Position numbers and translations under genes: made by a program. A stretch of DNA of 20,000 nt, from IMG/VR virus record IMGVR_UViG_3300037631_006629, positions 53,968-73,967 of that record. One strand, written 5' to 3'. A model generated the notes under the pieces. It searched no databases, had not been told where the DNA came from, and saw only the letters and a program-made list of their open reading frames with translations. Positions 2,799 to 20,000 of the stretch are shown here, piece after piece. Numbering within the stretch: the first letter of the stretch is position 1; each line of letters opens with the position of its first letter. Source of the stretch: an uncultured virus (IMG/VR IMGVR_UViG_3300037631_006629) (Duplodnaviria > Heunggongvirae > Uroviricota > Caudoviricetes).

Positions 2799-2964
2799 CA
2801 TAGGTGACTTAATAAAGTTTCCTTACGGCTTTGACATTAGAAAGAAAACTTACTACTTAGGAATAATAGTAGGAAAAAAAGTTACCAACAATATAGTTAC
2901 TTATAAGTGTTTTACTAATAATAGCTTTGAATATGTTCAAGAAGCTGTTATTATAAACGTATAA
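2776..2964 (+). CDS. small hypothetical protein with IGDL N-terminal motif (possible SH3-like beta barrel)
   Basis: FSIGDLIKF...YLGIIV; overlaps the ligase 3' end and is followed by a terminator. Confidence 0.6.
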   Translation: MEIKEKFSIGDLIKFPYGFDIRKKTYYLGIIVGKKVTNNIVTYKCFTNNSFEYVQEAVIINV

Positions 2965-2996
2965 AACACTAGAAATAAAGCATATTGTTATATTAT

Positions 2997-3023
2997 AAAA
3001 ACCAGCTAAAAGCTGGTTTTTTT
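2997..3023. terminator. intrinsic terminator (potentially bidirectional)
   Basis: AAAAACCAGCT-AAA-AGCTGGTTTTTTT inverted repeat with A and T tracts, after the ligase operon. Confidence 0.8.
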
Positions 3024-14490: not shown

Positions 14491-15087
14491 TTAGCCCCAA
14501 GCACTTCCTTGTTTGTTTTTAAATGACTTTTTACTTTTTGAAGTAGCTGAATTACGTACGTCAGGCCATAAATAATATACTGTATAACCATGTTCAGACT
14601 TATATACAGCTTTTTGTTTTCTACCGTTAATATCAATTTCTCCATAGTAATATTTTTGCGGGTCTCCTTGATAAGGTCCAGCTGGCCATGGTACGTCGAA
14701 GCTTCCATCATTACTGACACCTATGCCATTATTTATTCCAGCTTCGTATATTAAATCGTCTTCTGTCATTACAATATCACCAACATCAACATCACTGGGG
14801 AAGCCAGACATACCTTTGATATGCTTTGTTAGACTTTCAATTTCAATTTGATAACCATATTCTTCATTAATCATTTCTTCATCACCATGCTGATCAAACC
14901 TGTCGTAGCAATAAAAAATATCTTTACCATGAATATCTTCTAACTCTTTCAACAAATCTTTTGCTTTTTTTGTAGGATTGTGTCTAGTTCTTGTTATAGA
15001 TCCTCCTTGAGATTCGTTAACTTTACTTTTAAATTCGAACTTTCGCCATTCTTTTAAGATTTTTTTTGTCTCATTAGTTTTTTTCAT
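14491..15087 (-). CDS. hypothetical protein with N-terminal ILKEWRKF and C-terminal GSAWG motifs (possible internal virion protein)
   Basis: 198 aa, AAGGA RBS; terminal motifs shared with 15984..16727. Confidence 0.75.
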   Translation of the reverse strand: MKKTNETKKILKEWRKFEFKSKVNESQGGSITRTRHNPTKKAKDLLKELEDIHGKDIFYCYDRFDQHGDEEMINEEYGYQIEIESLTKHIKGMSGFPSDVDVGDIVMTEDDLIYEAGINNGIGVSNDGSFDVPWPAGPYQGDPQKYYYGEIDINGRKQKAVYKSEHGYTVYYLWPDVRNSATSKSKKSFKNKQGSAWG

Positions 15088-17582: not shown

Positions 17583-18276
17583 TTAATAAGCTTTCTAAAA
17601 CACTTATGTGTTTTTTAATATTTGAAGTTAACTTAGTTTTTCCGTCTTTTTTAGTACGAGAAGCAAAATTATCTGTATCAAATCCCGGAAACATTTCTAA
17701 GAATTCTTTTGAACCAATCCTTACACAATCTTTATGAGTAATTTGATTTGAAATGTTTAATTCAACAAATGTTTTCCAATAACTTTGACTTTGATCACCA
17801 ACAGTCAATATAACAAATTTATTACAACCAGACTTTTTAAATCTTTGAATATAATCGTCAGCTTTAAATTTACTGTCAAAAGTACCATTTTCACCACCAT
17901 TTTTAACTTCACAGTAAGTCTTGATGCCTGTTTCATTGTGTATTACTAAAACGTCAATATATGATTTTTTTTCTTTAGTTTTACCATTACTATCTTTCAT
18001 TGTATATTTGTTTAATACATGAGAAGTAGCTGTAAAATCTTTACAATATGTGTTTATTGTTTCTTCGATAATACTTTCTAAAGTAAAAGAGTTAGAAATA
18101 TTTGAACCATGTATAAGTCCTCTTAAAGCATTACATAATTCAAGATCATTTGTTTCACTTAAGTAACATGAAAGAGAATTAAACATATCAATTCTCTTTT
18201 GTAGGTTTTCATTTGATATGTCGTAGTAACTTTTAACTTTAGTGTCGCTAGATGATGTTTTATTCCATTTATTCAT
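17566..18276 (-). CDS. putative PD-(D/E)xK endonuclease (type II restriction enzyme candidate)
   Basis: LESII...YIDVLV...YCEVKNG pattern; overlaps the methyltransferase start by 17 nt. Confidence 0.6.
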   Translation of the reverse strand: MNKWNKTSSSDTKVKSYYDISNENLQKRIDMFNSLSCYLSETNDLELCNALRGLIHGSNISNSFTLESIIEETINTYCKDFTATSHVLNKYTMKDSNGKTKEKKSYIDVLVIHNETGIKTYCEVKNGGENGTFDSKFKADDYIQRFKKSGCNKFVILTVGDQSQSYWKTFVELNISNQITHKDCVRIGSKEFLEMFPGFDTDNFASRTKKDGKTKLTSNIKKHISVLESLLNEEVV

Positions 18277-18314
18277 GTTGTTTCCTTAAATATGTAGGTT
18301 TGTTGTTATGATTT

Positions 18315-18345
18315 ATTATATTACAATATTGATTATTTTACACGC
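18315..18345 (-). promoter_or_regulatory. promoter GCGTGTAA-N17-TATAAT for the nuclease-methylase operon
   Basis: Minus strand reads GCGTGTAA AATAATCAATATTGTAA TATAAT. Confidence 0.75.
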
Positions 18346-18467
18346 AATTGTTTTTAAAAAGGATGTTTACTATAACAATTAAATGCATGAGATAAATAGC
18401 ATATTAACTTAGAGAAAATGTGTATTGCAGATAAAGAAAAACATAATAATGAGTTAGTAATCAAAAA

Positions 18468-18550
18468 TACCACCAGCCGGGATCGAACCGGCACGACATA
18501 ATGTCGGGGGATTTTAAGTCCCCTGCGTCTACCTATTCCGCCATGATGGT
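18468..18550 (-). tRNA. tRNA-Leu (TAA)
   Basis: ACCATCA/TGGTGGT acceptor stem, GGGGA-CTTAAAA-TCCCC anticodon arm, long variable arm, GGTTCGATCC T-arm; no encoded CCA. Confidence 0.95.
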
Positions 18551-18554
18551 GTAA

Positions 18555-18627
18555 AGCTAATAAAGGGACTCGAACCCTTAACCTGCTGATTACAAATCAG
18601 CTGCTCTGCCAATTGAGCTATATTAGC
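18555..18627 (-). tRNA. tRNA-Thr (TGT)
   Basis: GCTAATA/TATTAGC acceptor stem, GCTGA-TTTGTAA-TCAGC anticodon arm, GGTTCGAGTCC; no CCA. Confidence 0.95.
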
Positions 18628-18634
18628 GATATAG

Positions 18635-18706
18635 TACACCCGGTAGGATTTGAACCTACGACCAATGGCTTAGAAGGCCACTGCTCTTCCACTGAGCTAC
18701 GAGTGC
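18635..18706 (-). tRNA. tRNA-Arg (TCT)
   Basis: GCACTCG/CGGGTGT acceptor stem, GTGGC-CTTCTAA-GCCAT anticodon arm, GGTTCAAATCC; no CCA. Confidence 0.95.
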
Positions 18707-18733
18707 TTATTGAGCATTATATGATACTGTATT

Positions 18734-18898
18734 TTAAGTAAATAATTTATTTATAATGTAAATTAAAAAAATAGAAACAAACCCAGGAGTATAAAAAACA
18801 ATGCAAAATCTGAAGGATAGGTTTAATACTTCAAGATAAGTTAACTTTTTATCTTTTATAATATAGTCTTTAATGTCATTTATTGTTTTTTTATACAT
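18734..18898 (-). CDS. small membrane protein (54 aa; start re-assigned)
   Basis: ATG at 18898 overlaps the upstream stop; MYKKTINDIK... with a hydrophobic C-terminus. Confidence 0.55.
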   Translation of the reverse strand: MYKKTINDIKDYIIKDKKLTYLEVLNLSFRFCIVFYTPGFVSIFLIYIINKLFT

Positions 18899-19280
18899 GC
18901 TTTTTTTTCGGTATATGCTGAAATATAATGTATGGATACCACTGGTCTGCATATGAAGTACCAATTCTAAGCCATATGTGCTCATCTTCAATATCTCTAA
19001 GAACGTAACCAGAAAATTCATCATCTATATCAGAATTAATATTTTCCATTCGTACTTTTGCTAAGTTTTTTTGCGCAATAAAACTTTTGTTTTGATTAGC
19101 ATCAGCGTAAAGCACGTAATCAAGCATGCTCCTGTATCCATCCATCTCATCTTCTACAGCTAACCACAATATATTGTCAAATTTAAAGGTATGTTCTTGT
19201 TCGTTTGCACCTTCGTAGTCTCCTACAACGCCAACGAGATTATGAAAGTGGTATAAAATTGATTTTTCTATACATTCCAT
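18891..19280 (-). CDS. hypothetical phage protein
   Basis: 129 aa, starts immediately after the upstream stop; EDEMDGYRS and WLRIGTSYADQWYP. Confidence 0.75.
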   Translation of the reverse strand: MECIEKSILYHFHNLVGVVGDYEGANEQEHTFKFDNILWLAVEDEMDGYRSMLDYVLYADANQNKSFIAQKNLAKVRMENINSDIDDEFSGYVLRDIEDEHIWLRIGTSYADQWYPYIIFQHIPKKKHV

Positions 19281-19601
19281 TTAAAGTGTTTCTTCGCTTT
19301 CTAGAGTAATTCTTTCAATCTCTTTTTTAAATGCATTGTTATATGAAATAGTATTGGTTTGCGGCATATTATCTATCAGCTGTAAAGACAATTCAGCATA
19401 CTCAGTAGTTGCAATTACTGGAAATGTTAAAATTAGATTGTCATCTTCTATAAAAGACTGACAAAATCTACAAGTTAGTTTATCAAAAAATTGTTCAGGA
19501 TCTATTTTTGTTTTATGCTTTTTATTAATAGCACTTATTGTTGAGTATATGATATTGTCAGAAAGTGTTGGATGTCTGTTGATCTTTAAACTTTTATTCA
19601 T
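19281..19601 (-). CDS. hypothetical protein (start re-assigned to MNKSLKINRH)
   Basis: GAGGT RBS before ATG at 19601; the longer ORF-track version runs through a tRNA. Confidence 0.7.
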   Translation of the reverse strand: MNKSLKINRHPTLSDNIIYSTISAINKKHKTKIDPEQFFDKLTCRFCQSFIEDDNLILTFPVIATTEYAELSLQLIDNMPQTNTISYNNAFKKEIERITLESEETL

Positions 19602-19630
19602 ATTTACCTCGTAAAATTTAAAATTATAAA

Positions 19631-19703
19631 TGGGCCCGGTGGGGATTGAACCCACGACCGGCCGATTATGAGTCGGATGCTCTAACCACTGAGCTACAGG
19701 CCC
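19631..19703 (-). tRNA. tRNA with CAT anticodon, probably tRNA-Ile2 (lysidine-modified, reads AUA)
   Basis: GGGCCTGTAGCTCAGTGGTTAGAGCATCCGACTCATAATCGG...GGTTCAATCC; paired first base and no GGG/CCC anticodon stem argue against initiator Met; no CCA. Confidence 0.85.
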
Positions 19704-19711
19704 GTAAGATA

Positions 19712-19837
19712 TTGAGGTTCCCAACTTCCTCAACTAGACACAGCCTAAATGATCATTACTTCGATCACGCTTCCGCAACCACAAAATAGCATTCTGCTAG
19801 TAATGCATGCTAACTATAATGATGGTCTGTGTCCCCC
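19712..19837 (-). ncRNA. putative structured noncoding RNA of unknown family
   Basis: Closing stem GGACACAG/CTGTGTCT, internal hairpins including a GGAA tetraloop, 3' hairpin TTGAGG/CCTCAA; TATAAT just upstream. Confidence 0.5.
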
Positions 19838-19852
19838 ACATATTATATTTAA

Positions 19853-20000
19853 TTATCGAGGTGTTACTAAAATAGTATTTTCTCCGTTTGTATACACATT
19901 AGTAATTTCAGAGCTATCATAGTTTTCTGCTACTTGCTGAATTCTACGAAGTTGATCATTTAGTCTAAACAAAGGAGTAAACTGTGATGTTCCGTTTTGA
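19853..20000 (-). CDS. 3' end of a hypothetical protein (starts beyond window)
   Basis: Open frame QNGTSQFTPLFRLNDQLRRIQQVAENYDSSEITNVYTNGENTILVTPR then TAA. Confidence 0.6.
   Translation of the reverse strand, partial: QNGTSQFTPLFRLNDQLRRIQQVAENYDSSEITNVYTNGENTILVTPR

Follow-up and report, generated by a model that had tools for sequence, protein, structure and literature searches.

The window, as we call the whole 20,000-nucleotide stretch of DNA analyzed here, forms the final 20 kb of an IMG/VR virus record of 73,967 bp (IMGVR_UViG_3300037631_006629), the G+C content of which is 30.6%. An identical copy of the stretch lies within L008, a metagenome contig of 254,264 bp, which makes the source phage a giant of roughly 254 kb. 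The public runs that contain the stretch are marine (20 rows from 15 studies), the isolated phages nearest by DNA ligase share only ~31% identity, and most of the neighboring ORFs belong to no PHROG or Pfam family. Near the end of the window, on the minus strand, the 3′ end of a 126-aa ORF (48 codons plus stop, 19853–19999, with the stop at 19855–19853; the full ORF occupies L008:2369–2749) is followed by tRNA-CAT (19631–19703), which is called by ARAGORN and scores 70.5 bits against the Rfam tRNA model. Its identity could be either Met or Ile2 read through lysidine. The ORF is conserved, matches no Pfam or PHROG family, and has no assigned function. The gap from its stop to the tRNA, which lies on the same strand, measures 149 nt and is filled whole by the folded element that concerns us here.

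Five nucleotides past the ORF stop lies TATAAT (19842–19847), a −10-like box, and folding starts 2–7 nt further on. The element is on the tRNA strand, directly behind this box and directly ahead of tRNA-CAT, as a prior reading of the letters alone (the sequence-only reading) had described it. The −10 match is perfect; only three of six −35 positions agree by eye, and the site falls below the threshold of a consensus scan, which does not list it. Within the 74-kb record, TATAAT has a frequency of 1.25 per kb and strand. Beyond position 18000 of the window, the minus strand carries four copies (19847, 19628, 18721, and 18320), all in spacers, and the units behind them are the element, a 106-aa ORF, a tRNA-Arg (9 nt ahead), and a 236-aa ORF. 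This placement is suggestive of a promoter role. Downstream, only 29 nt, a GAGG included, separate tRNA-CAT from the next ORF. No intrinsic terminator was found in 19704–19852; the scan of 18300–20000 lists two terminator-like sites, both inside tRNA genes (18493–18471 and 18579–18563). Because no terminator lies between the ORF and the tRNA and the gap to the next ORF is so short, the tRNA appears to be embedded in an mRNA operon.

Public RNA libraries contain the region. A contig from an oligo-dT RNA run extends across 19747–19962 and so bridges the ORF and the element, and a run labeled RNA-Seq yields a contig across 19423–20000. These contigs indicate presence rather than proving transcription, since they carry no information on ends, strand, or level and DNA carry-over could have produced them. 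Two DNA runs, X4 and X8, have no contig over 19713–19847, with both flanks covered at 100% identity; their depth is low (4–5×) and their contigs also break at the tRNA, and we read nothing into this gap. Separately, a loose end common to X8 and another run, X9, follows a tRNA that is only ~80% alike and may be another organism's.

The predicted minimum free energy (MFE) structure of the minus strand is a helix-closed, multi-branched leader of ~136 nt (19704–19839, G+C 42%). An outer helix, P0, pairs GUGGG (19835–19839) with CUUAC (19704–19708), the last 5 nt before the tRNA. Inside it, the closing stem P1 pairs GGACACAG (19827–19834) with CUGUGUCU (19736–19743) through seven Watson-Crick pairs and one G-U pair, 8 bp in all. 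P1 encloses a long arm, P2 (19778–19826), with the basal helix ACCA.CA/UG.UGGU and a distal part that has two competing registers, either AUAGU/GCUAU plus UGC/GCA or UAGCAU/AUGCUA; a short hairpin, P3 (19768–19777), UGC-GGAA-GCG with a GNRA-type loop; and the hairpin P4 (19749–19768), (G)UGAUC - GAAGUAAU - GAUCA(U). On the 3′ side, P5 (19711–19734) is a 7-bp hairpin, GUUGAGG - AAGUUGGGAA - CCUCAAU. Every stem listed in the sequence-only reading, and TATAAT with them, lies on the minus strand where it had been placed, and all 33 of its proposed pairs are standard. The closing stem, ACCAU/GUGGU, UAGCAU/AUGCUA, UGC-GGAA-GCG, and UGAUC/GAUCA are all present, and the UUGAGG/CCUCAA hairpin does end 8 nt before the tRNA (19703). 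Taken exactly as proposed, the pairing has an energy of −29.8 kcal/mol; the MFE fold keeps its helices and adds the 5-bp P0 (19839–19835 with 19708–19704), which it lacked.

The helices differ in how sharply they are predicted. P1 has pair probabilities of 0.89–1.00 and P5 of 0.85–0.92, and both persist (at least 0.85) when the tRNA is attached, with the tRNA cloverleaf still forming. P0 reaches ~0.7 for the element alone and 0.49 with the tRNA attached. The two P2 registers have probabilities of 0.3–0.5 each, P4 pairs 0.44–0.58, and the two G-C pairs of P3 0.52, while its U-G pair has 0.05. Only the P1 closing stem and the P5 hairpin are well defined in this model. With the inner arms at 0.3–0.6, the proposed four-way junction survives as a plausible fold but not as a well-defined one. 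The predicted fold is fully nested, without a pseudoknot.

We compared the stability of the fold with shuffled sequences and with the rest of the record. The minus-strand MFE is −39.2 kcal/mol compared to −31.2 ± 3.4 for dinucleotide shuffles, a z-score of −2.38, and 3 of the 200 shuffles do equally well. Adding the promoter changes z to −2.24 and this count to 6 of 200. Its raw MFE ranks 22nd among 9846 windows of 137 nt covering both strands of the whole record. Correcting for G and C content by regression leaves a residual of −2.1 sd and lowers the rank to 238 of 9846, showing that much of the stability comes from composition. An excess over shuffles, the check that the sequence-only reading had proposed, is there but only moderate, and we regard the modeled structure as moderately above chance. 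The element is indeed GC-richer than its surroundings (42.3% over 137 nt against 30.6% for the record), which places it at the 97.8th percentile among windows of that length. In the same phage, tRNA-Lys and the tRNA-Arg cluster have A+T-rich leaders without a fold, with z-scores of +1.62 and +0.64. Set against these sister leaders, the raised G+C points to selection on the RNA or to a recent acquisition. The highest G+C peak of the record (G000 14781–14917) proved to be a coding tandem repeat and not an RNA.

The strand is fixed by gene context more than by folding. G-U pairs had been taken to favor the minus strand, and the minus-strand fold does use six of them and is 9.3 kcal/mol more stable than the plus-strand fold. 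However, when each strand is set against its own shuffles, it is the plus strand that scores better (z −3.15, 0 of 200 as good). Folding statistics alone therefore leave the strand open, and it is the orientation of the gene and the tRNA that settles on minus. The fold also depends on where the transcript begins. With the ORF included as read-through, long-range pairing to the ORF takes over the predicted structure and the probability of P1 falls to 0.01; this switch arises because 19763–19742 and 19966–19947 form an inverted repeat, to which we return below.

The element belongs to no RNA family that we could find, as had been suspected. A gathering-score scan of the window with Rfam 15 (4227 models) returned four tRNAs only, and over 19550–20000 at E ≤ 10 all five matches lie on or downstream of the tRNA, with none in 19704–19850. 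The suggestion that it might be a tRNA mimic found no support: ARAGORN, run with introns allowed, with lowered thresholds, and in tmRNA mode, finds tRNA-CAT only, neither its relaxed settings nor the Rfam tRNA model find anything in the element, Rfam clan CL00001 has no match there at E ≤ 10, and by eye there is no T-loop-like sequence. The permissive metazoan-mitochondrial mode makes one call, 19823–19751, which disregards the strong stems. Searches beyond Rfam were equally blank. Among 50,697 phage records, blastn matched the tRNA alone, and a search with just the element gave five chance matches of 24–27 nt (E 5). Against the T4 stable RNAs rnaC and rnaD, blastn-short found chance words of 10–12 nt only. 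A word search of the open-access literature, not exhaustive, turned up no description of the element, and passages of PMC10690425 contain none.

We looked for homologues in closely and distantly related sequences. A metagenome scan recovered two copies only, in L008 and L009, 100% identical over the region. Four public runs show a single variant within the element, at 19822; this base is bulged out of the MFE fold, so the variant is uninformative about pairing. Neither a 17-mer from the element nor a 42-mer from the tRNA had a match in IMG/VR viral contigs. The neighboring proteins were no better as probes: the 106-aa and 236-aa proteins found nothing in viral contigs, tblastn of both neighbor proteins found nothing in isolated phages, an alignment of the 106-aa protein family found nothing in viral and genome contigs, and neither did an alignment of the upstream ORF in genome contigs. 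A methyltransferase search gave one distant provirus at 40% identity (G001), the tRNA region of which has no match to the element model. The DNA ligase was more productive: it matched 159 stretches in IMG/VR, and 80 loci were retained from these (41–100% identity).

In these relatives we searched with R1, a covariance model built from the single sequence, which scores itself at 173 bits and is weak for distant homologues. R1 matched none of five records (G002–G006) at E ≤ 10 and none of 35 further related records at E ≤ 1. In another five (G041, G007, G010, G012, and G020) it gave one match, of 14.9 bits in G020, which we rejected as a homologue because it is without the P2–P4 domain and has no tRNA nearby. 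With filters off, the tRNA regions of five relatives gave partial matches only, of at most 12 bits. Over the 45 related whole records there is accordingly no full-length match, a result that falls short of proving absence, as most of the records are fragments. The T4 tRNA region (L007), too, is without an R1 match at E ≤ 10. No second copy of the element occurs in the 74-kb record or in the 45 related records. A 194-nt gap before a tRNA-CAT of a distant relative, G006, was considered and set aside: its fold has a z-score of only −1.5 and it shows no similarity to the element.

The upstream ORF allowed the same position to be examined in other genomes. Its family comprises 55 proteins at E ≤ 0.001 including the query, with the other 54 at 60–85% identity; P0009–P0011 stand at 83–85% and P0012–P0040 at 70–77%. 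The order ORF, spacer, tRNA-CAT is kept in two relatives. In G002, where the ORF is 73% identical, the spacer is 74 nt long and consists of TATAAT, 7 nt, a 7-bp UUCG-loop hairpin, and 5 nt before the tRNA-CAT; its fold has a z-score of −6.5. In G041, the sole carrier of the ORF (66–67% identical) among 40 searched records, the spacer is 82 nt, A+T-rich, and contains a single hairpin that stops 3 nt short of the tRNA; its z-score is −3.65. Neither spacer has anything like P1–P4 or any sequence similarity to the element. The spacer position is therefore kept and folded in three of three syntenic genomes, and the four-way junction is found in one of the three. The idea of a conserved noncoding RNA gene fares poorly here, with no homologue found and a short hairpin leader in its place in G002 and G041. 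This absence, at ORF identities of 66–73%, says nothing about the closest relatives, whose ORFs are 83–85% identical. An abutting hairpin is also not clearly a rule for tRNAs in this group. Among 36 leaders of tRNAs at least 35 nt from the preceding tRNA and with at least 45 nt of upstream sequence in the locus, 13 have one, compared to 108 of 420 random windows.

The inverted repeat noted above joins the element to the upstream gene. The segment 19742–19763, which covers the P4 loop and 3′ strand, the linker UUUAG, and the start of the P1 3′ strand, is complementary to 19947–19966, a coding segment of the 126-aa ORF that holds the conserved RLNDQLR codons. Of 22 aligned columns (19763–19742 against 19966–19947), 19 are complementary, with a score of 28 compared to 16.6 ± 2.3 for shuffles; no shuffle matched this in sets of 1000 and 500, and three neighboring ORFs used as controls show no such complementarity. 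RNAduplex gives −66.1 kcal/mol for the pairing of element and ORF, a value reached by 5 of 500 shuffles, but it allows unrealistically large loops, so the alignment test was used instead. The complementarity was found post hoc, and the TGATCA at its core is self-complementary. Three further places in the 74-kb record match the element with an identical bit score (24.7, E 0.35 each), which puts the complementarity at chance level, and we do not count it as a finding. For G002 and G041, comparing each spacer with its own ORF, 67 of 500 and 391 of 500 shuffles are as good.

What, then, is the element? We favor, at roughly even confidence, a structured 5′ leader (spacer RNA) that is specific to this lineage, belongs to the tRNA-CAT unit, and is removed by RNase P. 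It does not look like a conserved new RNA gene. Transcription would start a few bases past TATAAT (19847–19842), or else read through from the 126-aa ORF, for which there is a weak hint. The first ~136 nt would then fold into a compact body, with P0 and P1 predicted to close both ends of the leader. RNase P cleaves at every tRNA 5′ end. A cut by the host enzyme between 19704 and 19703 would free the tRNA and leave the folded leader as a by-product. The leader's role would be local and cis-acting: it may hold the tRNA folding and processing site apart from neighboring mRNA sequence, and its structure could cap the RNA end made by RNase P. Because the relatives manage with a single hairpin, the elaborate shape would be a peculiarity of the lineage and not a conserved machine. 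The sequence-only reading had offered a processing element among its options, and this is the one that fits best. The composition of the element counts against this interpretation, since a plain leader has no need for high G+C. So do the poor −35, the lack of a clear excess of abutting hairpins in the wider group, and the collapse of P1 in the read-through fold.

A rival reading makes the stretch an independent gene for a trans-acting small RNA, comparable to T4 rnaC and rnaD or acting as a protein decoy or mimic, with its 3′ end made by RNase P. Its own TATAAT, paired ends (P0), raised G+C, and above-chance fold are what such a gene would have, and in the T4 tRNA cluster two stable RNAs, 139 and 119 nt long, are annotated. 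Additionally, a near-threshold match to freshwater-1 RNA (69.4 bits against a gathering score of 72) lies in the tRNA array of a distant relative, G005, indicating that small RNAs among tRNAs do occur in this phage group. Nevertheless, no homologue appeared wherever we searched, G002 and G041 included, the inner arms are ill-defined, and the element has by eye no T-arm like that of rnaC and draws a blank with R1 in the T4 tRNA region; we consider such a gene doubtful. A functionless recent insertion, or the decayed remnant of an RNA gene or small mobile element, tolerated as a removable leader, is unlikely as well. It would account for presence in one of three syntenic genomes, for a G+C-corrected fold that is unremarkable (238th of 9846), and for the higher G+C expected of newly arrived DNA, and tRNA remnants do occur in the gaps of relatives, where a T-arm-like GCGGGTTCAAGTCCCGC follows the G002 tRNA and L091 has sub-threshold tRNA matches. 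The element itself contains no tRNA remnant at E ≤ 10, has no second copy in the 74-kb record or 45 related ones, and shows no terminal duplication by eye, and its five or six helices in 136 nt exceed what shuffles produce.

The complementarity to the upstream ORF invites regulatory readings. An antisense or retro-regulator of the 126-aa gene, pairing 19763–19742 with the RLNDQLR codons at 19966–19947, could act in cis on the read-through transcript, creating a target for a double-strand nuclease, or in trans after release by RNase P. The 19 complementary columns of 22 that no shuffle equals, the three blank control ORFs, the domination of the 375-nt read-through fold by ORF pairing, the partly single-stranded state of the segment in the leader fold (P4 loop and UUUAG linker), and the RNA-library contig that bridges ORF and element all speak for it. 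The post hoc discovery, the three equal matches elsewhere in the 74-kb record, the self-complementary TGATCA core, and the lack of such complementarity in the G002 and G041 spacers leave it very unlikely. A fuller version, in which a species-specific regulatory RNA has its own promoter, a 3′ end made by RNase P, paired ends that keep it stable, and a P4 loop and linker that pair with the upstream RLNDQLR codons, strikes us as quite improbable. If the stretch were a feature of the DNA (palindromes that bind a protein, or a site of recombination or replication) rather than an RNA, the plus strand would be expected to fold better than its own shuffles, as inverted repeats do, and it does (z −3.15). 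Yet the six G-U pairs work on the minus-strand RNA only, which is the more stable by 9.3 kcal/mol, the arms lie up to 83 nt apart, and a location between a promoter-like box and a tRNA suits an RNA better, making this highly improbable. A ribozyme, also among the earlier suggestions, which by self-cleavage would trim the precursor of the tRNA or the mRNA upstream, is hardly credible: there is a multi-helix junction beside a processing site and a G-U pair at the base of P1, but no Rfam self-cleaver (hammerhead, twister, twister-sister, hatchet, pistol, or HDV-like) matches at E ≤ 10 over 451 nt, and the fold is nested, without the pseudoknots of HDV-like or twister ribozymes, and shows no conservation.

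If the element is merely a lineage-specific leader, it amounts to a small annotation point. A leader of this kind would mean that this group of marine giant phages places tRNA genes in mRNA operons behind fast-evolving folded spacers, with a tetraloop hairpin at one extreme and a branched body of 136 nt at the other. The element would gain in importance were the fold retained in closer relatives, and the candidate target 200 nt away makes the regulatory proposal testable. Were the regulatory RNA real, the upstream gene would be shut down or its mRNA marked for a double-strand nuclease, and the element would act as an antisense regulator punctuated by a tRNA, similar to P1 C4 RNA but aimed backwards. 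To our knowledge, no function has been assigned to the folded RNAs next to phage tRNA genes since T4 species 1 and 2 were annotated.

Those two T4 RNAs, rnaC (species 1, 139 nt) and rnaD (species 2, 119 nt), are close parallels in size and setting. Like the element, they are phage-encoded, lie beside tRNA genes on the same strand, contain no ORF, and are annotated without a function. They are located 3′ of tRNA-Arg, whereas the element is 5′ of its own tRNA behind its own TATAAT. Furthermore, rnaC has a canonical T-arm-like GGGUUCGAAUCCC hairpin and a z-score of −4.6, while the element has by eye no such sequence, and there is no sequence or model similarity between it and either RNA. Passages of PMC11143913 describe the T4 tRNA genes as transcribed in longer precursors that are cut by RNase P.

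For the antisense reading, the precedent is C4. This antisense RNA of phages P1 and P7 is matured by RNase P from the transcript that bears its target. PMC11143913 cites Hartmann et al. 1995 on it. C4 is conserved, genetically proven, and directed at downstream targets; the match of the element is 19 of 22, lies upstream, is unconserved, and stands at chance level genome-wide.

The favored leader interpretation has its own counterparts. RNase P cuts at an adjoining tRNA or tRNA-like structure make RNA ends in mitochondrial tRNA punctuation, in MALAT1-mascRNA, and in E. coli 3′ETS-leuZ. In each of these, as proposed for the element, the 3′ end of the upstream RNA is set by 5′ processing of the tRNA, and a stable structure lies beside that end, as is predicted here. 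They have been shown experimentally, whereas the cut product of the element and its stability are predictions. A further comparison is with the leaders of G002 and G041, which share with the element the succession of ORF stop, promoter-like box, folded leader, and tRNA-CAT. Their helices end 3–5 nt before the tRNA, compared to 0 nt (P0) or 7–8 nt (P5) in the element, and they are single hairpins of 18–36 nt where the element is a branched body of 136 nt.

The CAT-anticodon tRNA of the window (19631-19703, minus strand) is presumably not a bacterial initiator by the usual rules, because it carries a G1-C72 pair. Some phage tRNAs that resemble it are annotated in GenBank as tRNA-Ile. The remaining tRNAs seen in this phage are Lys-UUU, Arg-UCU, Thr-UGU and Leu-UAA, all of which read A-ending codons. 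A tRNA-Ile2 of the lysidine type, reading AUA, is therefore a possible identity for tRNA-CAT.

The surroundings of tRNA-CAT were also inspected in the syntenic relatives G041 and G002, which keep the upstream ORF followed by this tRNA. Immediately 3' of tRNA-CAT, G041 encodes a QueF-like protein (L097:2057-2419, plus strand; PF14489, 74.1 bits, E 1.1e-20), an enzyme of the 7-deazaguanine pathway. The same place in the window's phage is occupied by a 106-aa ORF of unknown function, unrelated to the QueF-like protein. About 60 nt downstream of tRNA-CAT in G002 lies a T-arm-like remnant, GCGGGTTCAAGTCCCGC (L093:6100-6160, minus strand); no tRNA was called there, and the remnant looks like a decayed tRNA gene.

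In the distant relative G006, a 194-nt gap (L091:1921-2114, minus strand) adjoins tRNA-CAT on its 5' side. A terminal helix of 12 bp closes the gap, and a T-arm-like GGGUUCGAAACCC lies within it; folding gave a z of just -1.5, and we found no similarity between this gap and the folded element that precedes tRNA-CAT in the window (19704-19839, minus strand). Other gaps of the same G006 locus gave sub-threshold or odd matches to the tRNA model, at 1176-1251 (26.4 bits) and 2629-2729 (37.8 bits).

The top composition-corrected fold of the entire 74-kb record falls, on both strands, at window positions 2884-3020 (residuals of -5.5 and -5.1 sd). This stretch belongs to the spacer that separates the end of the DNA ligase gene (2798) from the next ORF (3136). 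Here 2887-2914 and 2962-2989 form an imperfect inverted repeat of 28 nt with 75% complementarity, possibly a terminator or a palindrome to which a protein binds. G+C content peaks outside the window, reaching the record's maximum of 61% at G000:C1:14781-14917 (L010:780-920). This peak is not an RNA gene; a tandem repeat in coding sequence, GCTGGTGCTGAG / GCTGGTTCAGAG, specifies runs of AGAE and AGSE there.

Among known RNA families, freshwater-1 RNA (RF02979) gave a near-threshold match in G005, a distant relative whose ligase is 48% identical (L092:1577-1638, minus strand; 69.4 bits against a gathering score of 72, E 1.2e-14). The match is flanked by tRNA-Asn and tRNA-Ala, inside an array of 21 tRNAs.
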